Shown one piece after another: positions 6,165 to 50,963 of a stretch of 64,000 nucleotides of DNA; the stretch's first letter is position 1, and each line of letters opens with the position of its first letter. The notes under the pieces were generated by a model. That model saw only the letters and a list, made by a program, of their open reading frames with translations. It searched no databases and was not told the DNA's origin. The stretch is from Alistipes sp. GTDB taxonomy: Bacteria; Bacteroidota; Bacteroidia; Bacteroidales; Rikenellaceae. Both the position numbers and the translations under genes were made by a program. Location: positions 49,941 to 113,940 of the forward strand of contig JAZQZQ010000025.1 of assembly GCA_045634125.1 (NCBI GenBank), read 5' to 3'.

Positions 6165-6458
6165 ATGAAAGCACTATTTATATCATACAATCAGGCGTTG
6201 ACTGATCGTATCAATAAGATGCTTGACCTTCACGGAGTCCGCGGCTTTACACGCTGGGGACTCACCGAGGGTCGCGGTAGCATCGATGGCGAGCCACACT
6301 ATGGCACACACGCCTGGCCAGCAATGAATAGCTCTGTCCTCGCTATTGTCGAGGATGAGAAGATTGCACCACTTCTCGATGCACTTCGTGCAATCGATGA
6401 GACCACTAAGCAGCAGGGGTCGAGAGCTTTTGTGTGGAATATTGAGCAAGCGATGTAG
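6165..6458 (+). CDS. PG0541-family transporter-associated P-II-like protein
   Basis: 97 aa with GRGS..GEPHYGTHAWP motif; last gene of a Bacteroidales RND operon. Confidence 0.8.
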   Translation: MKALFISYNQALTDRINKMLDLHGVRGFTRWGLTEGRGSIDGEPHYGTHAWPAMNSSVLAIVEDEKIAPLLDALRAIDETTKQQGSRAFVWNIEQAM

Positions 6459-6585
6459 TTAGAAACCGTCTAACAAGGCTCTTTTGGCATCTGCCTTATG
6501 CGTAAAATGCTCATTTACGCCAAGTAAACTCCGCTTTTACGCACTGCGAGCAGCTTCAAAATAGCTTTTGTTATACAATTTCTAA
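6459..6585. repeat. Fold-back element family A, copy A1 (127 bp imperfect palindrome)
   Basis: Ends TTAGAAA/TTTCTAA. Core TGCTCATTTAC-gccaa-GTAAACTCCGC is shared with 40592-40857. Confidence 0.85.
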
Positions 6586-6592
6586 AAGAGTA

Positions 6593-6618
6593 TTGGGTGT
6601 CCAAATTTGGACACCCAA
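6593..6618. terminator. Perfect hairpin, likely intrinsic terminator of the RND operon
   Basis: TTGGGTGTCCAAA/TTTGGACACCCAA followed by a T-run. Confidence 0.7.
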
Positions 6619-6743
6619 TCTTTTTAAGGTGAAAAGTGAAAACTGAAAACGGAAAAGTGTGGTGCGCTTTGCGCAGTGTTTTTTAAGACGGCAGAGACAA
6701 AGGGATGACAGCGATATGTTAAAAGGCGATGCCTTTTTGGGGT

Positions 6744-6834
6744 GTGTTAATATGGGTTAATATAGGTTACTATAGGTTAAAATAATAAAATTGCATAGTA
6801 ACCCATAGAAACTCATAAGAACTTATATTAACCC
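6744..6834. repeat. Inverted array of 10-bp phased repeats (4+4 units)
   Basis: gtgttaatat gggttaatat aggttactat aggttaaaat ... atagtaaccc atagaaactc ataagaactt atattaaccc. Confidence 0.75.
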
Positions 6835-6886
6835 ACTGCTTTAGCTGTCGCTCCTTAATAGCGAATAATACTTATTCCACTTAATA

Positions 6887-6925
6887 AAATATAGGGTGTT
6901 AGCACTTTGCTAACACCCTATATTT
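6887..6925 (-). terminator. Hairpin terminator for the convergent membrane-protein gene
   Basis: AAATATAGGGTGTTAGCA / GCTAACACCCTATATTT inverted repeat just past the stop at 6944. Confidence 0.7.
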
Positions 6926-6943
6926 CGTTTGGCTCTCAGACTA

Positions 6944-8500
6944 TTAGCGAGATAGTTGGAAAGGTATCGCCTCATCGAGAGCTTTGACCTCCTCAGGGGT
7001 TAGCTCTGTGAGTGGACGGTTGTAGAGACGTTTAGCGATAGAGTCGCGGTACATCTCGAAACCTGCCTCGACCTCCGAGATTAGGCTCTCGCGGGTCTCT
7101 GATGTCAACTTATCCATAGCGATAAGGTCGGCAGCGTCAATCTTCTCGCCCTCAACAACCTCAATCTTATCATGCTCGGCAAGCAACATAGACTCGATAA
7201 CGCGAGCCAATGAACCCTCCTCCTCTGGAGTGTCGTCAGCCTCGTCAGTAAAGACGCGGTCGCCAAGGCGTACCTGATTCTCGCCAACGATCTCGATAAC
7301 GATAGGAGATGTAGTATAGCGGTCTGCGCCACCCTCAAATGTGGTTGGTGCGCCAAAGGCAAAGGTGTAAAGCACGAACAACCAGTGTGCTGCGATAGCG
7401 GCAACAAGACCACCGATAGTGTGTGCAAGGATAGCCTTAGATGTGAGCTTGCGGTAACCAAGAGCGTCAAGCATAGCTGTATGTGTGCTGAGGTAACCGC
7501 TCCAGCACATACCGATAGCTGTAAATACTGCGATGGCGTTACCATTTACGATGCCCTGAGCAGAGAACTCAGGTACAAGGCTCAATGCAGCACCCACAGC
7601 ACCAAGCGATGTGATAGGGAATGCCATAAGAGCAGGATGCTCGAAGCCAAATAGCCACTCGAAGACGAAATTAATCTTACCGAACAACCATGGCAAGAAC
7701 TCGATACCCTCGTATGCAGCGCCGTCGTAAGTACCGTTGCTACCAGCACCGAACGTTAGCAACATAACAAGAGTAGAGATAATAAGTACGCCTGGGATGA
7801 TAGAGAGACCTACATCAACACCTGTCTTACCACCATCGAGCAATGAGTTGAGGATACGGGTAAACATAGATGTCTCCTTAACCTCCTCTTTCTCCTTCAT
7901 CTCCTCCTCAGTAAGCACTGCTGCGAACTCGTCAGCGAACTCTGGATGCTCCTTGAGGATGAAGCGCTGCATAAGGCGTGTAGAGCAGATACAGCCGATA
8001 AATGCACCCAATAAACCGAGGAATGGCTCAACGAAGTAGCCCTGCGAAATCATAAATACGATAACAAGAAGACCCATACCGAAGGCTGTACCGAAGTTGG
8101 TAAGCGAGATAAACTGGAACTTCTTGAAGTATGAGCTAAAACGCTTATCCTTAGCAAGTGAGATAATAGCTGGATTATCTGAAAGGAATGTCATCACAGC
8201 ACCTAACGATGCTACACCTGGAAGGTTGAAGAGTGGCTTCATCAATGGGCGTAGGATGCGCTCCAAGAGGTTTACAACGCCAAACTCAACGAAGATGCTA
8301 CCAAGCGCACCTGTGATAACGCAGATAGCCATAAGGTAGAAGACGGTGTTAAGCAACAGGTCGTGCGCTGTCTTCATAATAGTATTAAGCATATTTGGCA
8401 CACCCATCACTGAGCCGATACCGCCAAAGATGCCGATAACGATAACAAGGCAGAAGATACCGGCAAGGTACTTCTTAAATCCCTTAGAATTGTTCTCCAT
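6944..8500 (-). CDS. Nucleoside-recognition (Gate)-like membrane protein (CD0519/CD1768-like) with an extra C-terminal soluble domain
   Basis: Many TM helices; motifs FLSDNPAII, LTNFGTAFGMG, GMCWSGYLSTH; about 130-aa acidic tail. Family call is from recall. Confidence 0.6.
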   Translation of the reverse strand: MENNSKGFKKYLAGIFCLVIVIGIFGGIGSVMGVPNMLNTIMKTAHDLLLNTVFYLMAICVITGALGSIFVEFGVVNLLERILRPLMKPLFNLPGVASLGAVMTFLSDNPAIISLAKDKRFSSYFKKFQFISLTNFGTAFGMGLLVIVFMISQGYFVEPFLGLLGAFIGCICSTRLMQRFILKEHPEFADEFAAVLTEEEMKEKEEVKETSMFTRILNSLLDGGKTGVDVGLSIIPGVLIISTLVMLLTFGAGSNGTYDGAAYEGIEFLPWLFGKINFVFEWLFGFEHPALMAFPITSLGAVGAALSLVPEFSAQGIVNGNAIAVFTAIGMCWSGYLSTHTAMLDALGYRKLTSKAILAHTIGGLVAAIAAHWLFVLYTFAFGAPTTFEGGADRYTTSPIVIEIVGENQVRLGDRVFTDEADDTPEEEGSLARVIESMLLAEHDKIEVVEGEKIDAADLIAMDKLTSETRESLISEVEAGFEMYRDSIAKRLYNRPLTELTPEEVKALDEAIPFQLSR

Positions 8501-8537
8501 AGTTTAGATATTTAATTTGCTTAAAATCAATAATATA

Positions 8538-9674
8538 TTACTTTAGTGCAGCCTTTAGACCCTGCAAAGCATCAATCTTCCATGTGATACCGAAGGTGAA
8601 GAATGAACCCTTATCGAGGGCGGTACCATTAGGGTCGTCATTTTTACCAGTGTTGTAAACATAGGCAGCGTGTAGGCGTACATCGCGGTTGCCGAGGTGC
8701 CCCATAGGGTAGTACTCGATACCGCCACCGATGCGAGTAAGGTCGGTATTAGGGTATACAAAGAGTGGCTGAGCATCAGCGCCAGCCTTGTCGTAGGTAA
8801 CCTTAGCAAATAGGTTTACGCGCTGTGCAACCAACTGTGAGAACTCCGCCATAATAGAGAAGTTCTTAAGCATAAACTCCTTAGCTGTTGTTCCACGGTT
8901 CATAAAGTCGAGTTCAAGAGTGGTGTTGCCCAACTTGAACTGGTTACCCAAAACAATGTATGCATCAAACTTCCCCTTCTGGTACTCCACGAAGTTTATT
9001 GAGTGGATTGCCTTGTAGCAGCCGTGTGAACCAAAATAGTAGAGGTTGTAGGCGTATAGGTCGCCAAGCTTTGTGATGATCTCTGGTGTGCAATCGTCAC
9101 AGCAATACTCTTTGTCTGTAGCTAACTCTGAGTGATAGTTAAGCGCCATTTTGTCGTATGGGCTTTGGCAAATCTGGAATGTGAATGAGTCGTTGCTCTT
9201 ATTTGTAGTATATGTCGCTGAAGCACCAAGCTGGAAGCAGTTTACATTGTTCCAATACTCCGAGCAGTAGTAGATCTCGATAGGGGCGCGGTCATACTCC
9301 CAACCACCAATCCAAACAACCTGCTTGCCTGCTGAGAACGACCAGTTGTCGTTAGCCTTATATGTAAGGTGCAACCAATCCGTATTGTTTACGAATGTGC
9401 CATCTACATTAGGACGGCTGAAACGCTGACGCCATGAGTAGCTGAACTTTGGTGCAATCTGACCATCCATTCGGAGGTTGAAGTAGCGCGCCTTAAAGCC
9501 TGTTGCGCCATAGATCTTATCGCCATTGAGAGCCTCGTTAAGATAGTCGAAACGTACCTCTACACCAAGGCGGAAGATCTCATTGCTCTTCTCGTAGCCC
9601 TGCTGTGCTACTGCCGATGTAAGGCTTAATACTGCTATGGCAATGCAGAGAATTTTGGTAAATGTATTCTTCAT
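8538..9674 (-). CDS. Outer-membrane porin (Bacteroidetes OprO/P-like)
   Basis: Signal peptide MKNTFTKILC..., beta-strand pattern, AGKQ...GGWEYD motif. The TATCTTTG promoter at 9730-9723 lies inside the longer track ORF, which supports ATG 9674. Confidence 0.7.
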   Translation of the reverse strand: MKNTFTKILCIAIAVLSLTSAVAQQGYEKSNEIFRLGVEVRFDYLNEALNGDKIYGATGFKARYFNLRMDGQIAPKFSYSWRQRFSRPNVDGTFVNNTDWLHLTYKANDNWSFSAGKQVVWIGGWEYDRAPIEIYYCSEYWNNVNCFQLGASATYTTNKSNDSFTFQICQSPYDKMALNYHSELATDKEYCCDDCTPEIITKLGDLYAYNLYYFGSHGCYKAIHSINFVEYQKGKFDAYIVLGNQFKLGNTTLELDFMNRGTTAKEFMLKNFSIMAEFSQLVAQRVNLFAKVTYDKAGADAQPLFVYPNTDLTRIGGGIEYYPMGHLGNRDVRLHAAYVYNTGKNDDPNGTALDKGSFFTFGITWKIDALQGLKAALK

Positions 9675-9722
9675 ATTTTGTAAGTTTAGATTTTGCAAAC
9701 GCCTAATACCTCTAATTACGGG

Positions 9723-9730
9723 CAAAGATA
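9723..9730 (-). promoter_or_regulatory. Bacteroidetes sigma-A -7 element
   Basis: TATCTTTG on the minus strand upstream of the porin. Confidence 0.55.
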
Positions 9731-9760
9731 TATAAAATATCTTAAGTATGCACATAAAAA

Positions 9761-9792
9761 TAGGGTTGCCCGCAATTTTTTGGACAACCCTA
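9761..9792 (-). terminator. Hairpin after the HMA gene (GGCTGTC-like family)
   Basis: TAGGGTTGCC...GGACAACCCTA. Confidence 0.55.
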
Positions 9793-9815
9793 CTCATTAT
9801 AAGAGTATCTACTCA

Positions 9816-10130
9816 CTATTTCTGCTCCTCGTTTACCTTAGCCTCCGCCTTAATCTTAATCTTTGCGAAAGCCTTAACGAGGGTCTCGTTGTTAGTCTTT
9901 GCTGGGTCGTAGGTTACAGTTACGGTCTTAGTAGGAACGTCAACCTGCACATCCTTAACACCCTTCTCATAAGGGATTGTGTTTGTAACCTTCTTAGCAC
10001 AGCCTGCGCAGTCGATATCTGTTACAAACTCAACGACAACACTCTTCTTATCGCCCTTCTTAGGCTCCTGAGCATTTGTAATGCCAATACCAAATAGTGC
10101 TACAAGGCACATCAAAATTATCTTCTTCAT
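9816..10130 (-). CDS. Secreted heavy-metal-associated (HMA) domain protein
   Basis: Signal peptide; CxxC motif DCAGC; HMA pattern GVKDVQVD...VTVTYDP. Confidence 0.88.
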   Translation of the reverse strand: MKKIILMCLVALFGIGITNAQEPKKGDKKSVVVEFVTDIDCAGCAKKVTNTIPYEKGVKDVQVDVPTKTVTVTYDPAKTNNETLVKAFAKIKIKAEAKVNEEQK

Positions 10131-10170
10131 AGTTCAGAGGTTTTATCTATATAACGTTCAAATTGTCAAA

Positions 10171-12525
10171 TTAGTATATGTTCAATCGAAGACCGATATA
10201 GAACTTACGTCCCATAAGTGGTCCCCATACCATTGATGAGTTAAAGCCCGGTGCGTATGGCTTATCGCCACCTACGATAGGCTTGTTGCCACCGCTTACA
10301 CCTTGTAGATAGTTAGCAATATTTTCGCAACCAGCGTATAGAGTGAGGTTGCTCATCTTGTAGCTTACCTGAGCGAAGTACATCGGATATACAGGTGAGA
10401 GCGTAGGGTTGTTCACCGCGGCATCCATATCGCCCATAAGCTCTGGGAGACGTACTGGTCCATTCACCTGTGCTGTAACGTCGAATACCCAGCGCTGCAC
10501 AGCATACTGAATATTGATAAGACCCTTGTAGCGCGATGTTAGTGGTCGCTCCACCAGAATCTGCTTACCATCATGCTCTAAGGTCATCACAGCGTTGGTG
10601 TAGCGGAATGTTGCAAAGAGGTCGAAGCCACGGAATGGTGTCCAGTTGAAGTCTACTTGATAGTTGTCGGTGTATGACTTGCCATCGGTGTTGTAGATAT
10701 GTGTGGTATTGTCGCCACGCTCCTGATCAAAGACCATGGTGTTGAAGAACTGCGTGCGGAAGTAGTCAACACTGATTGTTGCCTGATCGTCGCCAGCCAA
10801 ACGGAAGGTCTGCGCAAGGCTACCACCAAAGGTTGCAGCGCGCTCCATATCGTCGTTGAGGTTGTCGGTAACGATATTGCGTGACGATGTCATAATCCAG
10901 ATGTTGTCTGTAACGAGGTTCTGACGACGGTAGCCCATACCTGCCGATGCACGTAGTGTTGTGCGTGGAGTTATCGCCCAGCGGATATGTGAACGAGGTG
11001 TGATAAGAAACTCTGGCTTAGCATCATAGTAGTAGTTACCATTTACAATCGAGTAGTCGCCACGAATACCTACCACCCACGAGAACTTCTCTTCGTTGTT
11101 GTATGTATACTCGGCAAAGATACCCGGCTCGGCGAGTGTTGCCTTGCCCTTAGCCTGCCACATTGGCTGTGGTGTACCCGATGAGGCATCCTGCTGGAGG
11201 TAGTCGTTATCCATCATACGCGCATATACCGAGATACCCGCATTGAGCGACGAACGCTGTGTGAAGTAGTGTGCATATGTGGCGTTGAAGCGGAAGGTGT
11301 CCTCCATAACATCTACATTGTTAACACCGAAGTATGAGTCGGTGAGGTAGTTGTCGTAGTCGAATACCATAGCGATGTTGTTCTGCACAGCATCGTCTGG
11401 GTCGCCTGTGAAGGTTCGCTCGTAACCTACTGGAATACCGAGCTTAGCATAGGCATTGATATTACGATTGTGAATCTTCGAGCCGTAAGGAGTGGCGAGT
11501 GGGTTCTGCATCATCTGGTCGAACATATCCTCGCGGTAGTCCATCTGACCACCGATACGGTTCTCGTTCACCACCTTCCAACCCCAGCGGAGTTGTACGC
11601 CATCACTATTCTGCCACAACCACTTATTTGCGATGTTTATCTGATTTGCCTTTGGCATATCGGCAAAGCCGTCGCCGTTCATATCGTGGTGCGCCGTGTC
11701 GAGTGAGCCGTGTGCCATGATTACTGTTGAGAGGCTCTTATCTGGAGTCAATGGAATAGCCGACGAGATGTTAATCTCTGGGCGCATCTCGTTGTCGAAG
11801 TAGAGGTTTAGGAAGAAGCGCTCGTCGTCGGTAGGCTTGCGGTGCTCAAGGTTAATCTGACCAGTGATAGCCTCGTGACCTGCCGTTACCGATGCTACGC
11901 CCTTAGATACCTGGATAGAGTTAAGCCACATACCTGGGGTGTAGCTAAGACCGTATGTAGCACCTGCGCCCTGCATAATAGGGCGGTTCTCGTCGAGAAT
12001 CTGAGTGTAAGTACCCGCAAGACCAAGCATCTTAATCTGGCGAGCACCAGAGATCGCGTCGCTATAACCTACGGTTACCGAAGCAGAGTTCTCGAATGAC
12101 TCGGCAAGCGAACAGCACGCCATCTTACATAATCCTGCAAACGAAATCTGCTCCTGACGTGTGATACCAGTAGTCTTTGCGTAGTTACCACGCTGCTGAC
12201 CCTCTACAATGACCTCGTCAATATCTACGGCAGATGGGGTCAACTCAATATCGAGGGTAGCGACACCCTTCTCCTCGACCTCAATCTCCACCAAATCGTA
12301 GCCCAAGTAGTCCACTACAAGAGTGTTGAAGTCGTGAACACGCTTAATCGAGTAGCTACCATCGGCTGTTGATGTAGCACCTGCTGTAGTGTTCTTCCAA
12401 AAAAGTGTTGCACCTACAAGTGGCTGACCGTTGTTTACGTCGGTTACCTTACCTGTAAGGGTACGCTGTGCCATTGCCACGATAGGCAAGCATAAAGCAA
12501 TAAAAAGTATAATTGATTTTTTCAT
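10171..12525 (-). CDS. TonB-dependent receptor, likely for a metal ion
   Basis: Signal peptide, CarboxypepD_reg-like N-domain, plug with LCKMACCSLAESF, IQVSKG motif, C-terminal aromatic strand FYIGLRLNIY. Confidence 0.9.
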   Translation of the reverse strand: MKKSIILFIALCLPIVAMAQRTLTGKVTDVNNGQPLVGATLFWKNTTAGATSTADGSYSIKRVHDFNTLVVDYLGYDLVEIEVEEKGVATLDIELTPSAVDIDEVIVEGQQRGNYAKTTGITRQEQISFAGLCKMACCSLAESFENSASVTVGYSDAISGARQIKMLGLAGTYTQILDENRPIMQGAGATYGLSYTPGMWLNSIQVSKGVASVTAGHEAITGQINLEHRKPTDDERFFLNLYFDNEMRPEINISSAIPLTPDKSLSTVIMAHGSLDTAHHDMNGDGFADMPKANQINIANKWLWQNSDGVQLRWGWKVVNENRIGGQMDYREDMFDQMMQNPLATPYGSKIHNRNINAYAKLGIPVGYERTFTGDPDDAVQNNIAMVFDYDNYLTDSYFGVNNVDVMEDTFRFNATYAHYFTQRSSLNAGISVYARMMDNDYLQQDASSGTPQPMWQAKGKATLAEPGIFAEYTYNNEEKFSWVVGIRGDYSIVNGNYYYDAKPEFLITPRSHIRWAITPRTTLRASAGMGYRRQNLVTDNIWIMTSSRNIVTDNLNDDMERAATFGGSLAQTFRLAGDDQATISVDYFRTQFFNTMVFDQERGDNTTHIYNTDGKSYTDNYQVDFNWTPFRGFDLFATFRYTNAVMTLEHDGKQILVERPLTSRYKGLINIQYAVQRWVFDVTAQVNGPVRLPELMGDMDAAVNNPTLSPVYPMYFAQVSYKMSNLTLYAGCENIANYLQGVSGGNKPIVGGDKPYAPGFNSSMVWGPLMGRKFYIGLRLNIY

Positions 12526-12598
12526 TTTGGCTTAGGTATTATGTTGATATAGTATTATTTATGGGTGTAAAGCCCAGCCTCAGCCAATGCCAAGGATA

Positions 12599-13003
12599 TT
12601 AAGCCAATGCGGGTGGGGCACGAAGTCCAAAACTACGACTATAGGAGTCGGAGGGTGTACCAATATCGAGTAGTTCTAATCTCTCATACTGCGCATAGCT
12701 ATATAGAGATAGTTCCTCGTCAACAGAGGTTAGAACTATAGGGGCAACGAGCAACGATAGAGCTGCTGCGGTGCGTGAGTCAGTACGAGACTCGATAAAA
12801 TCGGTGTGGTTATCGCCGAGAATAGGGTGATGATGGTCGCAACAATCTTTGGTAACGCCAATGTGCGAACAACACTCCGATTTACAACTGTGATGATGGT
12901 GGTGATGATGATCGCATGTGAGCAGCGACAACGACGAAAGAAGTGTGGCTACGGTATATACCGCTACCATCAAAAAGGCATATATCTTTCTTCGTTGTGC
13001 CAT
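12599..13003 (-). CDS. His/Cys-rich leader protein ending in RAPP (DUF2946/CruR-like)
   Basis: N-terminal hydrophobic segment, CDHHHHHHHSC, CC pairs, C-terminal GLRAPPALA; ends 73 nt upstream of the TBDR. Confidence 0.72.
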   Translation of the reverse strand: MAQRRKIYAFLMVAVYTVATLLSSLSLLTCDHHHHHHHSCKSECCSHIGVTKDCCDHHHPILGDNHTDFIESRTDSRTAAALSLLVAPIVLTSVDEELSLYSYAQYERLELLDIGTPSDSYSRSFGLRAPPALA

Positions 13004-13018
13004 GCTTGCTCTGCTTAA

Positions 13019-13285: not shown

Positions 13286-13357
13286 AGTAATTAATGTTTT
13301 GCGGGGCGAAGTTACGAAAAATATTTTATTACGTAGTAATATCCCTTAGAAATTTCT

Positions 13358-13365: not shown

Positions 13366-13369
13366 TGCA

Positions 13370-34089: not shown

Positions 34090-36426
34090 ATGAATAGGTT
34101 GATACTTAGATATTTGATAGTTGTGGGGTTGGTGCTTTTTGCCATCTCCTGCGGTGTTACTAGTTCACTATCAGATGGCGAGTATCTTCTTACAAAGGTA
34201 GATGTTAAGGCGGATAAGAGAGTGCCACGTAAGGAGCGCATTACCGTTGAGAAGGATCGATATATCCGTCAGCTACCAAATAAGCGAATACTAGGTTTCT
34301 ATTTCCATGTATGGGTCTATCAGAATGCTAATTACACCAAGAGTGAGCGTATAAATAAGTTTATGCGCAAGATTGGCGAGCCTCCGGTGTTGGTCGATAC
34401 AGCACTCACAGAGCGCTCGGTGCAGAACTTGCAGACCTATCTCCATACTCGCGGATACTTTGCATCGGATGTTAGTTGCGATATTGACACTTCTACATTT
34501 AGACGACATAGAGCAATGATAACATACTCAATAAAGCAGGGTCCCGCAACACGTATAGACTCTATAAGTTACAATTTTAGAGACACCTCGTTGCGGAATA
34601 TAATCCTTGCCGATACAGCCTCCTCGTTAATTGTGCGTGGAGAGATCTTCGATGAGTCGGTATTGGAGGCGGAGCGCAACCGCATTGCTACACTGCTTAA
34701 TAACAATGGTTACTACGACTTTACAGCCAACAGTATCTCATACGAGGTAGACACCCTTGGTAGGGGGTTGGACGCCTCGGTATGTATGGTTGTAAGTCCT
34801 CTGTTAGTGGGCTATAGCGCTAATAGCGAGCAGATTTGGGAGAACCACCACATCTACCGCATCCGCAACATAGATGTCTATCCTACCTACGACCCAATGT
34901 ATCGTTCTACATCGGGTTTTGCGCAGGACGCGAAGATAGATACCACAATTTTCAAGGGTCTAAACATTATTCGCGATTTGGATGCTCCGTCGCAGTTGCG
35001 TAGCATTGTTTTGCGTCGTAATATCATGCTCTATCCCGATCAGGTTTACAACGCTCAGCGTGTATGGAGTACACAGAAGGAGTTGGTGTCGTTGGGCTTC
35101 TTCCGCAGTTCAAAGATCGCCTTTACACCTGTTCCCGATAGCGCGAAACTTGGCGAGAGGTATATTGATTGCAATATCTATGCTGCTCCAGCTCTTAAGC
35201 AGAGTATGAAGGTTGAGGTTGAGGCATCATCTACCTCTACATTCCACGGTCTTAGCTTCACGCTCGGTTATTCGAATAGAAATCTATTCCGCGCTGCGGA
35301 GTCCTTTGACGTATCTACCCGCTTTGGTTTCGAGTGGATGCGCGCCCGTGATGTGGCGAAGCGCAGTGCGCAGGAGATAGGTGTTACTGCGGGTCTCTCT
35401 TTTCCGCGCTTCCTTGTGCCATTCCGTATTACGCCAGGACCAAATATTGCGAAGCCACGTACACGTCTTGAGTTTGCCTTCGACTACCAGAATCGCCCAT
35501 ACTATAGTCGTAACATCTTCACAGCACGATGGGCTTATATCTGGCAGCAGGGTAATCGTGCTTCGTGGGTGTTGCGACCCGTAGATATCAACTGGATTAA
35601 TGTGCAGAGCATCAACGAGACATTCCTTAAGGATATGGACAACCAGTATTTAAAGACATCTTTTGAGTCGCAACTTAATGCTGGTCTCTCGCTCTCGTGG
35701 ATATATAACACGCAACGCTCCGATTTCGATGAGAATGTTACTATCATTCGTGCAAATTTAGAGTCTGTAGGTAATACCCTGCAACTCCTAACTACTGCCT
35801 TTGGAGACAATGCACATAATGAGAGCTATAACAAGATTCTTGGTGTCCGCTTTGCGCAGTATGTGCGTGGCGAGACGAGCATTAGCCATAAGATTGACCT
35901 TGGTGGCAAGATGGCGCTTGCAAGTCGTTTCTTTACGGGTGTAGGTGTAACCTATGGTAACTCAAAGGATCGCTCAATACCTTTCGATCGTATGTTCTAT
36001 TGCGGTGGTGCCAACTCGATGCGTGGTTGGGTGCCTCGTACTTTGGGCCCAGGTAATAAGCCTGAACTTAAAGGTGTTACCTACCCTTCGCAGGTGGGCG
36101 ATGTGCGCCTTGAAGCCAACCTTGAGTATCGTTTTCCTCTATGGTGGATACTTAATGGAGCCATCTTCTTTGATGTGGGTAATGTCTGGTATCTCCGTGA
36201 TACCGAGGATAGCAACCCCGAAGAGGTCTTCCACTTCAATAGCTTCTATAAGCAGCTTGGTTTCAACACCGGTCTTGGTATCCGCCTCGATCTCTCATAT
36301 GTTATTCTCCGTTTCGACCTCGGTATGCAGATTCACAACCCCGATCGCCCCGAGAATAATCGTTGGATAAAGACCTTTAATTGGCAGAATACTGCGCTGA
36401 ACTTTAGTGTCGGCTACCCATTCTAA
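34090..36426 (+). CDS. tamL: TamL/BamA-family outer membrane translocation lipoprotein
   Basis: Lipobox AISC, POTRA-like domains, barrel motifs GGANSMRGW and FFDVGNVW, terminal YPF. Confidence 0.85.
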   Translation: MNRLILRYLIVVGLVLFAISCGVTSSLSDGEYLLTKVDVKADKRVPRKERITVEKDRYIRQLPNKRILGFYFHVWVYQNANYTKSERINKFMRKIGEPPVLVDTALTERSVQNLQTYLHTRGYFASDVSCDIDTSTFRRHRAMITYSIKQGPATRIDSISYNFRDTSLRNIILADTASSLIVRGEIFDESVLEAERNRIATLLNNNGYYDFTANSISYEVDTLGRGLDASVCMVVSPLLVGYSANSEQIWENHHIYRIRNIDVYPTYDPMYRSTSGFAQDAKIDTTIFKGLNIIRDLDAPSQLRSIVLRRNIMLYPDQVYNAQRVWSTQKELVSLGFFRSSKIAFTPVPDSAKLGERYIDCNIYAAPALKQSMKVEVEASSTSTFHGLSFTLGYSNRNLFRAAESFDVSTRFGFEWMRARDVAKRSAQEIGVTAGLSFPRFLVPFRITPGPNIAKPRTRLEFAFDYQNRPYYSRNIFTARWAYIWQQGNRASWVLRPVDINWINVQSINETFLKDMDNQYLKTSFESQLNAGLSLSWIYNTQRSDFDENVTIIRANLESVGNTLQLLTTAFGDNAHNESYNKILGVRFAQYVRGETSISHKIDLGGKMALASRFFTGVGVTYGNSKDRSIPFDRMFYCGGANSMRGWVPRTLGPGNKPELKGVTYPSQVGDVRLEANLEYRFPLWWILNGAIFFDVGNVWYLRDTEDSNPEEVFHFNSFYKQLGFNTGLGIRLDLSYVILRFDLGMQIHNPDRPENNRWIKTFNWQNTALNFSVGYPF

Positions 36427-36559
36427 ATTTCTTGTGATAAGGGGCAACATCTTTGTCCCATCCCAAAAAGTAAGACCCCTCGGGCTGTACTACTTGTACT
36501 ATCCCGAGGGGATCTTCTTGTGCGATAGAACAAATCTGACTCCTTCTGACATGAAATTT
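36425..36559. repeat. Fold-back element family B, copy B1 (135 bp)
   Basis: AAATTTC/GAAATTT ends; core GGGCTGTAC-tactt-GTACTATCCC; homologous to 48286-48414 and 50835-50963. Confidence 0.82.
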
Positions 36560-39580: not shown

Positions 39581-40594
39581 ATGAAATTGAAATTGAATTT
39601 TGCCAATATGTCTGCCTCTGTAAAGGAGTCTGTAACAGATTGGCGTTGGTGGGCACAGATGGCACAGATTGTCTTTGGATGTATCCTTGTAGCTGTCGCC
39701 TTCGTTGTATTTATTAACCCATACAACTTGGTCCCTGGAGGTATTTACGGTTTGGCTTTGGTACTCCACAACCTATTTCCATCAATTCAGGTGGGTACAT
39801 TTGGCTATATGTTTGATGTACCACTTATCTGCACTGCACTTCTTCTTTTTGGCGGTACTTTTGGTGGCCGTACAATCTTCGCATCATTCATCACTCCAGG
39901 TATAATGAATATCCTCGACTACTTGGTTTATCCAAATCAGGCTGCTATCGAGGCTCTCGACCCTACACTTTTGCTCGGTGGTCAGATTAACCTATCATCA
40001 CACCTTATGCTTGCAGCTATTATCGGTGGTGTGTTCAGTGGTATTGGCGTAGGTATCGTTATTCGCAATAATGCTGCTACAGGTGGTACCGATATTACAG
40101 GTATGCTCCTACATAAGTTCGCGAAGATGAAGTTCGCTAATGGTGTTCTTCTTTCTGATGCTATTATCGTGCTTAGTGGTTTAGTGGTTATCGGCTTCGG
40201 TGTCGGTATTGAAGGTCCAGGTCAGGGCGTTGTACTATCTCTCTACTCGGCAGTATGTATCTTCGTGAATGCTAAGGTTTTGGGCTATACTATTGATGGT
40301 GCTTCGCGCGATAAACTCCTTTTTATTATCAGCGAGGAACACTCTGATGAGATGCGCAACTATATCCTTCACGACCTTAATCGTGGTGGTACATATCTTA
40401 AAGCTAAAGGTATGTACACTAACAATGAAAAAGAGATGATCTTCCTTGTTATTAACCGCAAGGAGGTGCGCACCGTACAGCAAAAAATCAAAGAGTTCGA
40501 CCCTACAGCCTTTGTGGTTGTAACTGATGCATACGATACCTTTGGTAAGGGTTTCAAGCCGTTCCCAGAGGAGAATGGTATGCCAACGGAGTAA
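39581..40594 (+). CDS. YitT family membrane protein
   Basis: PGGIYG, ATGGTDI, RGGT...KGMYT, DPTAFVVV C-terminal DUF2179-like domain. Confidence 0.9.
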   Translation: MKLKLNFANMSASVKESVTDWRWWAQMAQIVFGCILVAVAFVVFINPYNLVPGGIYGLALVLHNLFPSIQVGTFGYMFDVPLICTALLLFGGTFGGRTIFASFITPGIMNILDYLVYPNQAAIEALDPTLLLGGQINLSSHLMLAAIIGGVFSGIGVGIVIRNNAATGGTDITGMLLHKFAKMKFANGVLLSDAIIVLSGLVVIGFGVGIEGPGQGVVLSLYSAVCIFVNAKVLGYTIDGASRDKLLFIISEEHSDEMRNYILHDLNRGGTYLKAKGMYTNNEKEMIFLVINRKEVRTVQQKIKEFDPTAFVVVTDAYDTFGKGFKPFPEENGMPTE

Positions 40595-40715
40595 AATTGT
40601 TTTAAGTGGCTCTTTTGGCGTCTGCCTCGATTGAAAAATGCTCATTTACGTCGAGTAAACTCCGCTTTTTCAATCTTCGAGCAGCCTCAAAATAGCCTAC
40701 TTAAAAGCAATTTTA
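40592..40715. repeat. Fold-back element family A, copy A2 (124 bp)
   Basis: TAAAATTG/CAATTTTA ends; core TGCTCATTTAC-gtcga-GTAAACTCCGC. Confidence 0.88.
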
Positions 40716-40747
40716 TTGTGCAACCAGTAAAGTTATTTTTAGATTGT

Positions 40748-40857
40748 TCTTTTGGCGTCTGCCTCGATTGAAAAATGCTCATTTACGTCGAGTAAACTCC
40801 GCTTTTTCAATCTTCGAGTAGTCTCAAAATAGCCGACTTAAAAGTAATTTTATTGTG
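40748..40857. repeat. Family A copy A3 (tandem duplicate lacking the left outer arm)
   Basis: Near-identical to 40611-40720, period 137 bp. Confidence 0.88.
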
Positions 40858-43067: not shown

Positions 43068-43085
43068 AAAGCATTTTACTAACGG

Positions 43086-43194
43086 CAATTAAGGGTAATT
43101 AAGGGCTATTAGGGGTTTTTAAGGAGAGATAACAAACCTTTAATTGCCCTTAATAACCTTTAATCACCCTTAAATACCTTTATACACCTTTAAG
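43086..43194. repeat. Inverted array of 10-bp phased repeats (4+6 units)
   Basis: caattaaggg taattaaggg ctattagggg tttttaagga / cctttaattg cccttaataa cctttaatca cccttaaata cctttataca cctttaag. Confidence 0.8.
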
Positions 43195-43195
43195 T

Positions 43196-44578
43196 TTACA
43201 TATGTATTGCGCATCCCAAAGCATCCTCCGCAGCCTCCATAACAGCCTCATGCATAGATGGATGTGCGTGGATGGTGCGAGCGATGCGGTGAGCATCTAC
43301 GCCCAAGACCTTAGCCAATGTAGGCTCGCCAATCATCTCCGTAACGTTGTGGCCTACGAAGTGCGCACCAAGCAACTTCTCCTCCTTGTCGAAGATAAGC
43401 TTCACGAAGCCATCGCGCTCGCCAGCAGCGGTAGCCTTACCCGATGCGGTGTATGGGAACTTACCAACCTTATACTCGATGCCCTGAGCCTGCACCTGTG
43501 CCTCGGTCATACCTACAGATGCCACCTCTGGTGAGGTGAAGATGCACGATGGGATTGTTGAGTAGTCGATTGGCTCTGGGTTAAGACCGCAGATATGCTC
43601 TACGCAGTGGATAGCCTCGGTAGAAGCCACGTGTGCAAGAGCTGGTGTTGCGATAATATCACCGATAGCATATACACCATCGACACTTGTTTTGAAGTGC
43701 TCGTCAACCGTAATCTTGTCGCGCTCGATATCGATGCCAAGTTCCTCAAGACCCATATCCTCGATGTTAGACTTGATACCTACTGCCGAGAGTACGATGT
43801 CTGCCTCGATAGTCTGTGCGCCCTTCTTGCCCTCGATGTCGATTACGCACTTGCCCTCATCGTTAACACTAACTTGCTTAACAGTAGTTGAGGTCATCAC
43901 TGTAGCGCGTAGCTTTCGGAAGGCGCGCTCCATTGCCTTAGCAGTATCCTCATCCTCCAAAGGCATAATCTGTGGCATATACTCGATAATGGTAACCTTA
44001 ACACCCAATGTAGCGTAGATATATGCAAACTCAGAGCCGATAGCGCCTGAGCCTACAACAACCATAGACTCTGGCAACTCTGGCAATACCAACGCCTCCT
44101 TTGAGGAGATGATATGCTTGCCGTCGACAGGCATGAATGGCATAACTCGTGGACGTGCGCCAGTAGCGAGGATGATATGGTCAGCCTCATAGTCTACGCC
44201 CTCAACCTCTACGACATCCGACGCCTTTAGGCGACCGAAGCCTGCGATAACGTCAATGTTGTTCTTCTTCAAAAGGAACTGAACGCCCTTGTTCATAGTT
44301 GATGCAACCATACGCTCGCGCTCTACCATCTTTGTCCAGTCAGGCTTTACCTCGCCCTCGATAGCGACACCAAATGTAGCAGCAGCCTTGCAGTCGGCAT
44401 ATACCTGTGCCGAGCGCACAAGAGCCTTAGTAGGGATGCAACCCCAGTTGAGGCACACGCCACCAGCATCAGCCTTCTCAACGATAGCCACGCGCTTGCC
44501 ACACTGTGCAGCACGGATAGCGGCAACATAACCACCAGGGCCTGAGCCGATCACGATAATATCATATCTGTTGTCCAT
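43196..44578 (-). CDS. lpdA: Dihydrolipoyl dehydrogenase
   Basis: GSGPGG, GGVCLNWGCIP disulfide motif, HPSMHE. Confidence 0.96.
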   Translation of the reverse strand: MDNRYDIIVIGSGPGGYVAAIRAAQCGKRVAIVEKADAGGVCLNWGCIPTKALVRSAQVYADCKAAATFGVAIEGEVKPDWTKMVERERMVASTMNKGVQFLLKKNNIDVIAGFGRLKASDVVEVEGVDYEADHIILATGARPRVMPFMPVDGKHIISSKEALVLPELPESMVVVGSGAIGSEFAYIYATLGVKVTIIEYMPQIMPLEDEDTAKAMERAFRKLRATVMTSTTVKQVSVNDEGKCVIDIEGKKGAQTIEADIVLSAVGIKSNIEDMGLEELGIDIERDKITVDEHFKTSVDGVYAIGDIIATPALAHVASTEAIHCVEHICGLNPEPIDYSTIPSCIFTSPEVASVGMTEAQVQAQGIEYKVGKFPYTASGKATAAGERDGFVKLIFDKEEKLLGAHFVGHNVTEMIGEPTLAKVLGVDAHRIARTIHAHPSMHEAVMEAAEDALGCAIHM

Positions 44579-44593
44579 AGTCTATATCTATTT

Positions 44594-46222: not shown

Positions 46223-46349
46223 AGTTTTGTTTTAGGTTATTGTTATTATAATTAATTCATAAAATCTTTCAAAGGTAGTAATTTTTTTGAAATGCATACT
46301 AATATTTAATGTAATTTACTATTTTTGTAGGCAAAATAAGCGATTAACT

Positions 46350-47009
46350 ATGACTATTAAGGAGCGATTAGAGAGAATATTGGCGACCCTACCTGAGTGT
46401 GTTCAGCTTGTTGCGGTGTCGAAGTTTCACCCTGTGGAGCGCCTACAGGAGGCCTACGATGCGGGTCAGCGTATCTTTGGCGAGAGCCGACCTCAGGAGA
46501 TGGCAGCTAAGGCAGAGGTCTTGCCTAAGGATATTGTGTGGATAATGATTGGACATCTGCAAACCAATAAGGTCAAAATGATTGCCCCATTCGTGTCGAT
46601 GATTGCATCGGTGGATTCTGAGCGCCTTATCGAGGAGATTGAGAAGCAGGCGGCAAAACTCGACCGCACGATAGATATACTCCTTGAAGTGCACGTTGCG
46701 CAGGAGGAGACAAAATCGGGATGGTCGGAGCAGGAACTCCTCGACTACCTTGCTACGGATGCTCTAAGCCGTATGCCACATGTGCGCGTTCGTGGCGTTA
46801 TGACCATTGCCTCTAATACTGATAATGAGAGCATTGTTCGTTCTGATTTCCAGCGTATAAAAGATATATTTGATACTCTTAAGCCACGCTTTGGCGAGGC
46901 GTTCGACACACTCTCAATAGGTATGTCCGACGACTATCCTTTGGCCTTGGAGTATGGCTCAACAATGGTGCGAATCGGTACAGCTATCTTTGGCCAAAGA
47001 GAGTACTAA
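46350..47009 (+). CDS. yggS: YggS family PLP-binding protein
   Basis: VAVSKF, FGESRPQE, IGHLQTNK, SIGMSDD, VRIGTAIFG. The TATTTTTG promoter at 46320-27 supports ATG 46350. Confidence 0.96.
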   Translation: MTIKERLERILATLPECVQLVAVSKFHPVERLQEAYDAGQRIFGESRPQEMAAKAEVLPKDIVWIMIGHLQTNKVKMIAPFVSMIASVDSERLIEEIEKQAAKLDRTIDILLEVHVAQEETKSGWSEQELLDYLATDALSRMPHVRVRGVMTIASNTDNESIVRSDFQRIKDIFDTLKPRFGEAFDTLSIGMSDDYPLALEYGSTMVRIGTAIFGQREY

Positions 47010-47032
47010 TACCAATTGGTAATGAATATTTT

Positions 47033-47061
47033 AAGGGTGTCAATGATTTTTTGATACCCTT
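47033..47061 (+). terminator. Terminator after yggS
   Basis: AAGGGTGTCAA...TTGATACCCTT followed by a T-rich run. Confidence 0.65.
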
Positions 47062-47162
47062 ATTCTTTTTTTTGCATACAATCTCAGTGGTGGTTTTGCT
47101 TATTTGGGAGAATTTGCGTAAATTTGCCTATCAATCGACAAATAATTATAATCAGATACACT

Positions 47163-48287
47163 ATGAAAAAACTGTTTTTACTACTTGCCCTTATTGGCAT
47201 TATTGGCGTTGGCTGTTCTAAGGAGGAGGTCGATAAAGGCAATGATATCCCTAAAAATATCTTCTTTGGACTTGATAAGGAGAGTATCACTATTTCTCCT
47301 GACGGAGGAAGTGTGGATGTAGTTGTATATAGTAACTACAATTGGGAAATTTCTGGTGTAAGTGATTGGTGTACACCATCAGTAAAAAAAGGTGATGCTA
47401 ATGAGGATGGTCAAAAAGTTACATTCTCTGCAGATGTGGCCTATGACGATAGAGAGGCAACCTTCTGGTTCCGCTGTGCTAATGAGAAGATTAAGTTTGT
47501 TGTTTCGCAGAAATTCAAGGAGGTTTTTATAGCAGATGAGAATAATGTATTCACCGTTTCAGGTTCAGGTGGCGAAGTCGTAATAAAGTATCAAACAAAT
47601 GTAGACTGTGATATTATTATTCCTGAGGAGGCAAAAGATTGGATAACTATTGTTCCAGCAACACGAGGCTTGGTTGCATATAATACTACTCTCAATATTG
47701 ATGCTAATAATTCTAGCGAACTAAGGAGCAGTGTGATTAAGGTTGTCTCTCAAGAAGATAACGAACTATTTGCAGAGTATACCATTAACCAAAATCCGAT
47801 ACGTTTTCTATATTATACATCAAGCGACGGCAATATAGTTAAGCCTTACAGCAGTTCCAGCAGTTCAGCCTTTGATGCTACTATACTGTCTAATACATAT
47901 AAAGATGGGGTTGGTATCATTGAATTTAATGCTCCTATAACCCAAATTGGAAATTATGCATTCTCTGATTGCGATAGCCTAACAAGTGTAACAATTCCTG
48001 ATAGTGTAACTACAATTGGAGAGTGGGCATTCAATGGTTGCAGTAACCTTACAAGTGTAACTATTGGTGATAGTGTAACTACAATTGGTAGTTGGGCATT
48101 CAAAAATTGCAGTAGCCTAACAAGTGTATATTGCAAGGCTGTAACACCGCCTGCTGGAGGTTCTTGGATGTTCGATGGTAACGCCTCTGGTCGTAAGATT
48201 TATGTGCCTGCGGAGTCGGTAGAGGCTTATAAGTCGGCATCTTATTGGAGAAATTATAAATCAGATATTGTTGGCTACGACTTTTAA
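47163..48287 (+). CDS. Surface lipoprotein with two BACON-like domains and BspA-type leucine-rich repeats
   Basis: Lipobox GVGC; BACON W..V and DWITI motifs; 23-aa repeats LTSVTIPDSVTTIGEWAFNGC. Confidence 0.85.
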   Translation: MKKLFLLLALIGIIGVGCSKEEVDKGNDIPKNIFFGLDKESITISPDGGSVDVVVYSNYNWEISGVSDWCTPSVKKGDANEDGQKVTFSADVAYDDREATFWFRCANEKIKFVVSQKFKEVFIADENNVFTVSGSGGEVVIKYQTNVDCDIIIPEEAKDWITIVPATRGLVAYNTTLNIDANNSSELRSSVIKVVSQEDNELFAEYTINQNPIRFLYYTSSDGNIVKPYSSSSSSAFDATILSNTYKDGVGIIEFNAPITQIGNYAFSDCDSLTSVTIPDSVTTIGEWAFNGCSNLTSVTIGDSVTTIGSWAFKNCSSLTSVYCKAVTPPAGGSWMFDGNASGRKIYVPAESVEAYKSASYWRNYKSDIVGYDF

Positions 48288-48414
48288 TTTTCGATTTATA
48301 TAGGGCGTCTTCGTCCTATCCTAAACAAAATATCGTGGGCTGTACGCTTTGGTACTATCCCGCGATATTTTATTTATACGATAGAACAAATCTGCTCCTC
48401 TAAAATCAAAAATT
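48286..48414. repeat. Fold-back element family B, copy B2 (129 bp)
   Basis: AATTTTCGATTT/AAATCAAAAATT ends; core GGGCTGTAC-gctttg-GTACTATCCC; CGATAGAACAAATCTG shared with B1. Confidence 0.82.
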
Positions 48415-48474
48415 CAGTTTTAACTTTTGACTTTTCAGTTTTCAGTTCGTAAGTAGCGTGGGTATTATTTATTT

Positions 48475-48671
48475 AATTAGTAATGAGTAAATAGTAATTA
48501 GTAATGATTAAAAGGCTGTGCCTTTTTTGGAAAAAGGGAATAAAGCGTCCAAAAGGGGACCAAAGGGGGATAAAATAATTAGTAATGAGTAGAGAGTAAT
48601 TAGTAATAGTTAAAAGGCGTTGCCTTTTTATATTTTACCCTTTAGGCCCTTTTCTGCCTCTTTCTGCCCTT
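48475..48671. repeat. Direct-repeat module (period 102) with 10-bp phased inverted arrays
   Basis: AATTAGTAATGAGTA...AATTAGTAAT..TTAAAAGGCnnnGCCTTTT occurs twice, each followed by four 10-bp units (AAAGGG-type, then CCCTTT-type). Confidence 0.7.
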
Positions 48672-48754
48672 GGGTATTAGACACTGTAATTATAACACGC
48701 GTCGCAGACACCACACTTTTTAGTTTCCCCTTTTCAGTTCGTTTTGTCATTTTG

Positions 48755-48859
48755 CTGACAAAATGTCAGTTGGTGGCTATCTGGTATGGCAGTTTTGTCA
48801 TAAGAAATAGAAGAAGTGCGTCAGTTTTGGCGCATTTTTTTGTTTGGCACTACGTTTGT
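48755..48859 (+). promoter_or_regulatory. Putative sigma54-like promoter with upstream TGMCA inverted repeats (dnaK)
   Basis: TGGCAC-TACGT-TTGT at 48845-59; palindromes at 48755-69, 48786-801 and 48817-34. Confidence 0.45.
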
Positions 48860-48940
48860 TCGGCAAGAAATCGTAACAGCGAAATAATGGTTGCACAGAC
48901 AGAAGAAAGAAATTATTAACAAATATAAAATTTAAGAATT

Positions 48941-50836
48941 ATGAGCAAGATTATTGGTATTGATTTGGGTACAACCAACTCGTGTGTGGCTGTAATGGAG
49001 GGTAACGAGCCTGTTGTTATTCCTAACGCTGAGGGTCATCGTACAACCCCTTCTGTAGTGGCATTTACTGAGGGCGGTGAGCGCAAGGTGGGTGATCCTG
49101 CAAAGCGTCAGGCTATCACTAACCCTAAGCGTACAGTATTCTCTATTAAGCGCTTTATGGGTGAGCGTTACGATGCAGTAACATCAGATATCGCACGCGC
49201 TCCATACTCAATCGTTAAGGGCGACAACAACACTCCACGTGTAGACATCGACGGTCGTCAGTACACTCCACAGGAGATTTCGGCTATCATTCTTCAGAAG
49301 ATGAAGAAGACGGCAGAGGATTACCTTGGTCAGGAGGTTACAGAGGCAGTTATCACTGTTCCTGCATACTTCTCTGACTCACAGCGTCAGGCTACTAAGG
49401 AGGCAGGTGAGATTGCTGGTTTGAAGGTACGTCGTATCATCAATGAGCCTACAGCTGCGGCTTTGGCATACGGTCTCGATAAGAAGCAGAACGATATGAA
49501 GATTGCTGTATACGACCTTGGTGGTGGTACCTTCGATATCTCAATCCTTGAGTTGGGTGATGGCGTATTCGAGGTTAAGTCTACAAATGGTGATACTCAC
49601 CTTGGTGGTGATGACTTCGACCACGTTCTAATCGACTATATGGCCGAGGCATTCAAGGCTGAGCACCAGATCGACCTTCGTCAGGATCCTATGGCATTGC
49701 AGCGTTTGAAGGAGGCTGCTGAGAAGGCTAAGATTGAGCTTTCATCTGCTACAACAACAGATATCAACCTCCCATACATCATGCCAGTAAATGGTATCCC
49801 TCAGCACCTCGTAATGACACTTACACGCGCTAAGTTCGAGCAGCTTTGCGACCACCTTGTACAGAAGACTATCGAGCCATGTCGTGTAGCTTTGCGCGAT
49901 GCAGGCTTGCAGGCAAGCCAGATCGACGAGGTTATCCTTGTGGGTGGTTCTACACGTATCCCTGCTATCCAGCGCGTTGTTGAGGAGTTCTTCGGTAAGG
50001 CTCCTAACCGATCAGTAAACCCAGATGAGGTTGTTGCCGTAGGTGCTGCGATCCAGGGTGGCGTTCTTACAGGCGAGGTTAAGGATGTGCTTTTGCTCGA
50101 CGTAACTCCACTTTCACTCGGTATCGAGACTTTGGGTGGTGTGATGACTCGCCTTATCGAGGCTAACACTACAATCCCTACTCGTAAGAGTCAGGTGTTC
50201 TCTACAGCCGCTGATAACCAGCCAACTGTAACTATCAATGTATGCCAGGGTGAGCGCGCAATGGCTGCAGATAACAAGTCTATCGGTCAGTTCAACCTCG
50301 ACGGTATCCCAGCAGCTCCACGTGGTGTGCCACAGATCGAGGTTACATTCGATATCGACGCTAACGGTATCCTTAACGTATCTGCTAAGGACCTTGGTAC
50401 AGGTAAGGAGCAGAAGATTCGTATCGAGGCTTCAAGCGGCTTGACAGATGCTGAGATTCAGCGTATGCGCGACGAGGCTAAGGCTAACGAGGCTAAGGAT
50501 AAGGCCGAGAAGGAGCGTATCGAGAAGATCAATATGGCGGACTCAAATATCTTCGCTTCAGAGAAGAATCTTAAGGAGTACGGCGATAAGCTTCCTGCTG
50601 ATAAGAAGTCGGCTATTGAGGGCGCTCTTGCAAAGCTTAAGGAGGCACACGCAGCTAAGGATATCGCAGCTATCGACACAGCTATCGAGAACCTTAACGC
50701 TGCATGGCAGGCAGCCTCACAGGATATCTACGCTCAGCAGCAGGCACAGCAGGCTCAGGGCGCACAGGGTGCCGAGCAGCAGGGCGCAGAGCAGCAGGCA
50801 CAGCCTGAGGATGTGGAGTTTGAGGAGGTAAAGTAA
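48941..50836 (+). CDS. dnaK: Chaperone DnaK
   Basis: [25 protein letters not shown]. Confidence 0.99.
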
Positions 50837-50963
50837 TTTCTCAGGAGAAGGCAGACATCTGCTGCCGCTAACAAAAAGTCCCGACAATGAGCAGTACACC
50901 AAGTACAGCCCATCGTCGGGATTTTTGCCGAGCGTTGCATCTGCAGCCTTCTCCTGAGAAATT
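50835..50963. repeat. Fold-back element family B, copy B3 (129 bp, core inverted)
   Basis: Perfect 18-bp terminal IR AATTTCTCAGGAGAAGGC; minus-strand core GGGCTGTAC-ttggt-GTACTGCTC. Confidence 0.82.

Follow-up and report, generated by a model that had tools for sequence, protein, structure and literature searches.

We analysed a 64,000-nt stretch of DNA (the window; positions 49941-113940 of contig C25) from a 1.87-Mb metagenome-assembled genome (MAG) of 38 contigs and 92% completeness, in which fold-back repeats of two types, A and B, lie at the stop codons of genes. The sequencing runs that contain the window DNA are rumen or bovine-gut metagenomes, and we read the host as an uncultured rumen Prevotella-like bacterium. 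The initial annotation of the window had named six junctions between a repeat and a stop codon. We checked these junctions by open reading frame (ORF) listing, direct reading and Pfam scans, and all six are correct. Names of host genes derive from N-terminal sequences or Pfam matches. Below, G000 is the present genome, other G numbers are congener species, and L numbers are loci (metagenome strains and species loci).

The A and B fold-backs in the window lie on the plus strand. A1 (6459-6585) directly follows the TAG stop (6456-6458) of a gene for a 97-aa P-II-like protein (6165-6458). Its outer stem is formed by TTAGAAACC.../...CAATTTCTAA, its apex, GCTCATTTAC-N5-GTAAACTCCGC, occupies positions 6509-6534, and its predicted folding energy is -38.6 kcal/mol. 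A2 (40592-40717; apex at 40640-40665; -45.9 kcal/mol, z -6.2) takes the TAA stop of a YitT gene (40592-40594) into its stem and is followed head to tail by A3 (40728-40852), a second copy that is 93% identical to A2 and forms a weaker hairpin (-33.5 kcal/mol).

The B-type elements share the bases of the stop codons. The final A of the TAA stop (36424-36426) of an Omp85/POTRA (TamL-like) gene is the first base of B1 (36426-36558), which has the left end AATTTCTTGTGATAAGG (36426-36442, with an AATTTC start), the right end CCTTCTGACATGAAATT (36542-36558) and a GTAC-N5-GTAC apex (36487-36499); a tail-like sequence, TTGGTCTTGCGCG, comes after the right end. B2 (48286-48414; ends AATTTTCGATTTATATAGGG / CCTCTAAAATCAAAAATT) begins at the second base of the TAA stop (48285-48287) of a BspA-type leucine-rich repeat (LRR) gene, and this gene-end and B2 junction recurs in LRR paralogues. 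The BspA-type LRR/BACON paralogues (47124-48287 in the window and at the ends of contigs C4, C9, C14, C34 and C38) all end in ...GGYTAYRAYTTT TAA, followed by a B2 or an A unit; as these paralogue ends coincide with contig breaks, gene family and repeat together fragment the assembly. B3 (50835-50963; apex at 50894-50906) begins at the second base of the dnaK TAA stop (50834-50836) and is a near-perfect hairpin (-68.8 kcal/mol, z -12) with an orthologous copy in the relative G012. Distal to B3 are two solo right-end motifs, CCTTCTGACAAGAAATT, at 50977-50993 and 51025-51041 (region 50977-51041, plus strand), each followed by a GG(G)TCT.. tail, which we take for relics of older elements. They are directly followed by a gene for RNase P RNA (class A, 222 bits) at 51101-51450.

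Long hairpins are predicted for all six elements, with z scores from -2.75 to -12. The initial annotation had stated that all five full-length elements sit flush with a stop, and this holds for the first members of arrays; A3, the distal member of the tandem pair with A2, is full length and is not flush. The annotation had also counted in a 10-bp array next to an LpdA-like gene. This inverted array of 10-bp units (TTAAGGGnnn; 43086-43194, minus strand) lies 1 nt from the stop (43196-43198, minus strand) and is a fold-back of a different repeat class, with a main stem that starts ~22 nt past the stop. Inverted arrays of such units at 43086-43194, 48531-48671 and 6744-6834 fold back themselves (43080-43200: -41 kcal/mol, z = -5.6). 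Elsewhere in the genome they are mostly found downstream of the terminator that closes an A or B unit, and the LpdA-like copy is the only one that adjoins a stop.

Placement was then determined for the whole assembly, in which 1426 genes were self-called from ORF length and codon statistics. BLAST searches with six window copies yielded about 36 A and about 81 B loci. The copy sets rest on motif and BLAST searches; a minimum free energy hairpin census of all 3' flanks was too permissive and a palindrome extender too strict. Counts cover 78 B and 35 A copies with extrapolated 5' ends, and a copy was called flush when its 5' end fell between -6 and +11 nt from the stop of a co-oriented upstream gene. 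Flush copies number 60 of 78 for B and 23 of 35 for A, compared with 2.8% of intergenic positions drawn at random, with the strand also random (p about 1e-77 and 1e-27, respectively). Moreover, the upstream gene boundary is a co-oriented stop in 77 of the 78 B copies, as against 51% at random, and the elements avoid promoter-side intergenic DNA. Of the 27 non-flush copies, approximately 16 are later members of arrays that start with a flush element. Random placement within intergenic DNA had been set beforehand as the outcome refuting gene-end targeting, and the genome-wide distances contradict it decisively. The proposed targeting of gene ends is borne out in that placement is non-random, strand-specific and, as described below, recurs at the same stop across species and strains.

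About 15% of the genes with a downstream spacer of at least 100 nt carry an element. Genes with flush copies have higher codon-bias scores (0.48 vs 0.31, p = 2e-8) and include dnaK, groEL, efp, infC, greA, pgk, ackA, secA, ileS and a PFOR-like gene. Their stops comprise 72 TAA, 9 TAG and 0 TGA codons, compared with 66/29/5% genome-wide (odds ratio for TAA 4.3, p = 3e-6).

The position of the junction was resolved with the left-end motif TTTCTTGTGATAAGG, which, with two or fewer mismatches allowed, gave 104 matches genome-wide. Of these left ends, 41 (40%) are at offset 0 from the stop and 74 (71%) at offsets 0-12. The bases from the stop to the TTTC of the motif almost always end in AA (TAA, TAAA, TAATAA, TAGAAA, TAGCAA etc.). 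Thus the repeat truly begins with AATTTC, and where the offset is 0 its first two bases are the AA of the stop. The initial annotation had suggested that TAA or TA sites are targeted. TAA is indeed favoured; as the sole target, however, neither TAA nor AATT can explain the placement, since by a rough estimate such sites are ~10x commoner in intergenic DNA than at stops, yet 70% of the copies are at stops.

The left end contains TAA in one of its frames and TGA TAA in another, so that an ORF entering it would often end there. One might therefore suppose that gene calling creates the flush position, or that the elements extend the upstream genes as coding or read-through sequence. We consider this hardly credible at all. 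The dnaK stop is followed by a B3-type element in G000 and G012, by a B1-type element in G003 and G014, by an A-type element in G002 and by another hairpin in G005, and it is without an element in six congeners; the DnaK C-terminus, FEEVK*, is constant in all of them. The last residue of DnaK is therefore the same whether or not an element follows, which means that the element neither supplies the stop nor alters the protein and that the stop was occupied independently. The proteins GcvH, EF-P and GreA are likewise identical across alleles that carry different elements. Stops are overwhelmingly at the first TAA, an internal TGA being used in one case only, and the frame after the stop is open across the hairpin in 28 of 103 copies, equal to another frame. 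The native stop and the protein C-terminus are unaltered by the elements. We also considered and rejected the idea that elements supply the stop by truncating genes, as C-termini are the same with and without them.

Alleles at other loci reveal a rapid turnover of units. Downstream of a DUF3127 gene, locus L101 has one B1 between the TAA and the tail (a short conserved sequence described below), while G000 has B3, B1 and B3 between flanks that are 100% identical. One extra unit has been added on the stop side of the resident B1 and the other at its AATT end; one of the two junctions fits an AATT overlap and the other has 5 extra nt. Similarly, A1 is present in strain L038 and absent from L031, which encodes an identical 97-aa protein and has, after the same TAG, a 72-nt spacer with ordinary terminators. 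The elements are thus mobile in the broad sense, being gained, lost and exchanged at fixed junctions. These events occur at two places only, the stop codon and the A/T-rich (AATT) ends of resident units, and addition at these two places yields head-to-tail arrays that begin at the stop.

The spacer behind the P-II-like gene (window 6459-6943; loci L031-L038, 1795 onward) ranges from 72 nt to about 990 nt among strains with identical protein. It is composed of interchangeable modules, namely fold-backs, small terminators and inverted arrays of 10-bp units, and the L035 allele includes a transposase gene fragment. At three other genes, 30 of 30 metagenome contigs that encode identical GcvH, EF-P or GreA carry an element at the stop. 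These alleles differ in core, in tandem arrays and in A/T-rich junction variants of 0-5 nt, and a 10-11-nt remnant of an older left end recurs among them. Exact-protein look-ups for DnaK, YitT and SSB alleles found none on record.

Each unit is a single hairpin of 125-135 nt, present in more than 100 copies in the genome. Aligned copies have imperfect inverted ends of 17-19 nt, left AATTTCTTGTGATAAGGGG ... right CCCCTTCTGACAAGAAATT, with variants, and two conserved mismatches distinguish the left end from the right end. The terminal inverted ends, which read AATTTC.../...GAAATT, are common to more than 100 copies, and 119 left-right pairs lie within 200 nt. The same ends wrap interchangeable cores, which are A, B1, B3 and at least one more. 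The core apices are GCTCATTTAC-N5-GTAAACTCCGC for A, GGGCTGTAC-N5-GTACTATCCC for B1 and GGGCAGTAC-N5-GTACAGCCC for B3, and that of the further core type is GGGAAATAC-N5-GTATGTCCC.

A tail of 13 nt, GGGTYGTGSKGCT, adjoins the last hairpin; behind it, many copies have a canonical terminator (GTTAAAAGGCnnnGCCTTTTT), which in turn precedes arrays of 10-bp units. All 21 of the 21 non-coding tail occurrences sit behind a right end. We tried the alternative that AATT is the target and the tail a pre-existing flank, and rejected it: the tail never occurs without a hairpin, and only one of the two junctions fits in the comparison of the one-unit and three-unit DUF3127 alleles. The hairpin itself is followed by GGGTYGTG.. 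without a T run, and in many copies a separate AAAAGGCnnnGCCTTTTT terminator is located ~35-50 nt downstream. The unit therefore looks like the first part of the 3' untranslated region (3' UTR) and not like the terminator; with no directly following U tract, the hairpin was rejected as an intrinsic terminator.

In size and architecture, the units resemble the enterobacterial repetitive intergenic consensus elements (ERIC/IRU) and the Correia/NEMIS elements, which are fold-backs of ~100-150 nt with inverted ends and are co-transcribed with their neighbours. ERIC elements in Yersinia have orientation-dependent effects on mRNA stability, as summarised in PMC2229807. The initial annotation had invoked an ERIC/Correia-type TA target with duplication. 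This idea does not hold for the present elements, as their flanks lack a consistent direct repeat and the right side is the conserved 13-nt tail of the element. ERIC and Correia elements insert at TA, which they duplicate, and may flank a gene on either side and in either orientation, whereas the present units show no TA duplication, near-absolute co-orientation (77/78 B copies) and avoidance of the promoter side. The sequences are not related.

The types differ greatly in their distribution. Among 201 family genomes the exact B end is nearly species-specific: the present genome has 54 exact copies, one congener has 5, and further occurrences are singletons. As for the A apex, 75 of the 151 genus species carry it, in up to about 60 copies, with zero control matches. 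Its 21 specified bases (GCTCATTTAC-N5-GTAAACTCCGC) are conserved genus-wide while stems and ends diverge. The carriers are mainly small genomes of 1.6-2.4 Mb, and element DNA makes up about 1% of these streamlined genomes; the large complete genomes of 2.7-3.9 Mb are without the motif. At loci L081, L084, L085 and L092 of congener G225 a B3-type unit is nested in the left arm of an A-type unit (after ...TTTTGTCGT), which indicates that units can insert into each other's stems as well as their ends.

On balance, and with modest confidence, we interpret A and B as one lineage-specific superfamily of modular, non-autonomous fold-back repeats with a preference for stop codons in rumen Prevotella-like genomes, akin to repetitive extragenic palindromic (REP) sequences and bacterial interspersed mosaic elements (BIMEs) or to MITEs (miniature transposable elements with inverted repeats). 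Units may integrate or recombine through short A/T microhomology at the TAA/AATT junction, and the apex may be recognised by a catalysing enzyme, for which a candidate would have to be sought outside the Y1/HUH transposases. Selection would purge copies that arrive elsewhere or in the opposite orientation and would keep sense-orientation copies downstream of genes. There the unit would form the first transcribed part of the 3' UTR, mainly in genes of high expression, and would probably serve as a 3' barrier or as a processing site before the terminator proper. A bolder variant, which we think rather unlikely, is that the units are portable 3'-UTR cassettes that home to translation stops, either through an apex-specific recombinase acting on the mRNA-complementary strand or through coupling to the ribosome exit point. 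The stop of a highly expressed gene would then be an integration landmark and not a leftover after selection.

Several results weigh against a superfamily of mobile repeats. Y1_Tnp (PF01797, RAYT/HUH, where RAYT is REP-associated tyrosine transposase) gave no match in the host's own genome and is absent from 149 of the 151 genus genomes; the two genomes with a match are not element-rich, and the same search detects the family in 6 of 14 named control genomes. No consistent direct repeat, as expected of a target-site duplication (TSD), was found at the element flanks. A search for a longer element with the same ends found no left-right pair 0.5-4 kb apart that is insertion sequence (IS)-like, with the contents of four intervals unexamined and in a 92%-complete MAG, where IS copies are often missing. 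Members of the main A subfamily of G225 have the orientation of the upstream ORF but start 8-51 nt past the stop, while AATTTC-end copies are flush, which indicates that flushness belongs to the AATTTC-type end and not to the whole superfamily, and that co-orientation and residence in the 3' UTR are general. Finally, the full occupancy at gcvH, efp and greA fits an obligatory function combined with gene conversion as well as it fits active insertion.

Observations on strand and transcript fall on both sides of the balance. In favour of the superfamily, inner stems vary among copies yet stay paired, with 323 compensatory versus 367 pair-breaking cells. Against it, the complement of the mRNA strand folds better than the mRNA strand itself (-60.5 vs -52.0 kcal/mol, in 75 of 84 copies), and private one-sided stem changes on the sense strand comprise 99 A:C and 58 G:T mismatches. 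The better folding of the complement and the A:C excess argue against selection on the mRNA hairpin alone; the G:U versus A:C test for mRNA-level selection gave a result opposite to the prediction, and we rejected such selection as tested in this way. The mRNA strand of the elements is also C-rich, with a GC skew of -0.13 compared with +0.045 in ordinary 3' flanks. Taken together, there are hints that the complementary strand, as DNA or antisense RNA, matters. In favour of the superfamily, though weakly, B-type sequences are found in a rumen metatranscriptome, with a depth that falls across B3; the transcript signal comes from fragmented metagenome contigs that break at repeats.

The foremost rival is that the elements are not mobile and represent an ancient, selected RNA module of the 3' UTR, which might be a stability barrier, an RNase III or other processing site, or a modulator of translation termination like the E. 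coli REPs within 15 nt of the stop, and which was homogenised or swapped via its shared ends by homologous recombination or gene conversion. Liang, Rudd and Deutscher (2015) reportedly found that a REP lowers expression via ribosome stalling if it lies no more than about 15 nt from a stop. We regard this explanation as possible but doubtful. It is favoured by the 30/30 occupancy, the strict co-orientation and avoidance of promoter-side DNA, the high codon bias of the host genes, the many compensatory stem changes and the failure to find a transposase or TSD, and also by the retention of about 1% of the DNA as units in streamlined 1.6-2.4-Mb genomes. It does not readily account for a dnaK stop that lacks an element in six congeners and is occupied by unrelated subfamilies in others, implying repeated arrivals, nor for the addition of units on both sides of a resident unit between identical flanks. 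Moreover, selection for proximity to the stop predicts a spread over ~0-12 nt and not a spike at offset 0 that uses the AA of the stop, and the hairpin of the mRNA strand is weaker than that of its complement. Thus a selected module that spreads by recombination only explains universal occupancy at some genes, and explains the offset-0 spike, the dnaK arrivals and the additions between flanks less well.

We also weighed two enzymatic systems that act on folded single strands. In the first, the units would be of the REP/REPIN type, with single-stranded DNA mobilised by a RAYT or by an IS200/IS605-type Y1 (HUH) transposase and stop overlap arising as in GTAG REPs. With their imperfect pairing, conserved bulged apices and variable loop of 5 nt, the hairpins do resemble the sites of hairpin-recognising enzymes, their orientation is strand-specific, and overlap of REPs with stop codons is documented (PMC3733652). 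However, Y1_Tnp is lacking here and in every element-rich genome of the genus, so that both the REP-RAYT and the IS200/IS605 models fail. In addition, the units have no GTAG or CGTC head, GTAC being present at the apex only, and they are single hairpins of 125-135 nt and not REPs of 20-40 nt. This origin is very improbable.

Comparison with REPs and BIMEs is nevertheless instructive. REPs are found downstream of genes, between tandem or convergent ORFs, and their GTAG ends often supply the TAG stop (PMC3733652). Like the present units, they are extragenic palindromes that lie mostly 3' of genes, with many adjoining or overlapping coding regions (PMC3733652). Both also form clusters and combine with other short motifs into mosaics, and REPs are proposed to take part in mRNA stabilisation and termination. 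The present units differ in having 17-19-nt ends around interchangeable cores and a far greater length, in forming arrays that are head-to-tail and not alternating, in lacking a GTAG/CGTC tag and in occurring in element-rich genus genomes that contain no RAYT. Their placement is also far tighter, with 40% at offset 0 and 71% within 12 nt.

The second system is the integron, in which a tyrosine recombinase would act on attC-like cassette sites, folded single strands that start at the stop of each ORF. There are likenesses: attC sites are structure-defined, sequence-variable imperfect hairpins at the ORF end that have fixed polarity and act via one folded strand. The units fall within the 57-141-nt size class of attC, are imperfect palindromes with conserved asymmetric bulges, variable stems and a fixed orientation to the ORF, and start at or over the stop; one A subfamily contains GTCTAAC ... 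GTTATAC, near the core sites RYYYAAC/GTTRRRY. Against this, the hosts are dispersed single-copy housekeeping genes (dnaK, groEL, efp, secA etc.) and not promoterless cassette arrays, B-type ends lack AAC/GTT core sites, and hairpin arrays have no ORFs between the hairpins. We therefore see scarcely any likelihood that the units are integron sites.

Returning to the superfamily of stop-preferring repeats that we favour, it has counterparts within its phylum in the MITEs of Bacteroidota, which are likewise non-autonomous inverted-repeat elements (P. gingivalis BrickBuilt/MITE, PMC4596501; catalogue, PMC11602168). Prevotella MITEs are listed in bulk in the catalogue (PMC11602168). A stop-codon association is reported in neither PMC4596501 nor PMC11602168, and the term 'stop codon' is absent from the latter. 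As in MITEs, the present units have terminal inverted repeats and presence/absence polymorphism between close strains; a fixed-length TSD was not found.

The initial annotation had raised the possibility of an undescribed system, and in part this stands. Rfam covariance models gave no match at the gathering threshold and, up to an E value of 5, only chance-level miRNA matches, and our literature search found no prior description of the elements in Prevotella. The family is thus in neither Rfam nor the literature searched. The general phenomenon, on the other hand, is known from GTAG REPs (PMC3733652). A phage origin was also considered and was rejected, as neither A2 nor B3 has a match in 50,697 phage records. 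What is new here is the degree of docking to stop codons, the strict polarity, the modular cassettes with conserved apices and the lack of those enzyme families by which the known cases are explained.

If the docking is mechanistic, it suggests that mobile DNA has a novel means of choosing a landing site where it does no harm, and also that some enzyme recognises the hairpin apex, which is conserved across half of a large rumen genus of economic importance. Should the units be cassettes that home to stops, they would choose their targets on a principle that has not been described in bacterial mobile elements. In practical terms, the elements break assemblies and mark strains, and they could serve as portable 3' modules in expression design. 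If the docking is selective, about 15% of the transcription-unit ends in streamlined rumen Prevotella would be furnished with a 3'-UTR hairpin that can be exchanged, preferentially those of highly expressed housekeeping genes, which would be relevant to mRNA decay and termination in Bacteroidota, where the biology of 3' ends is little studied.

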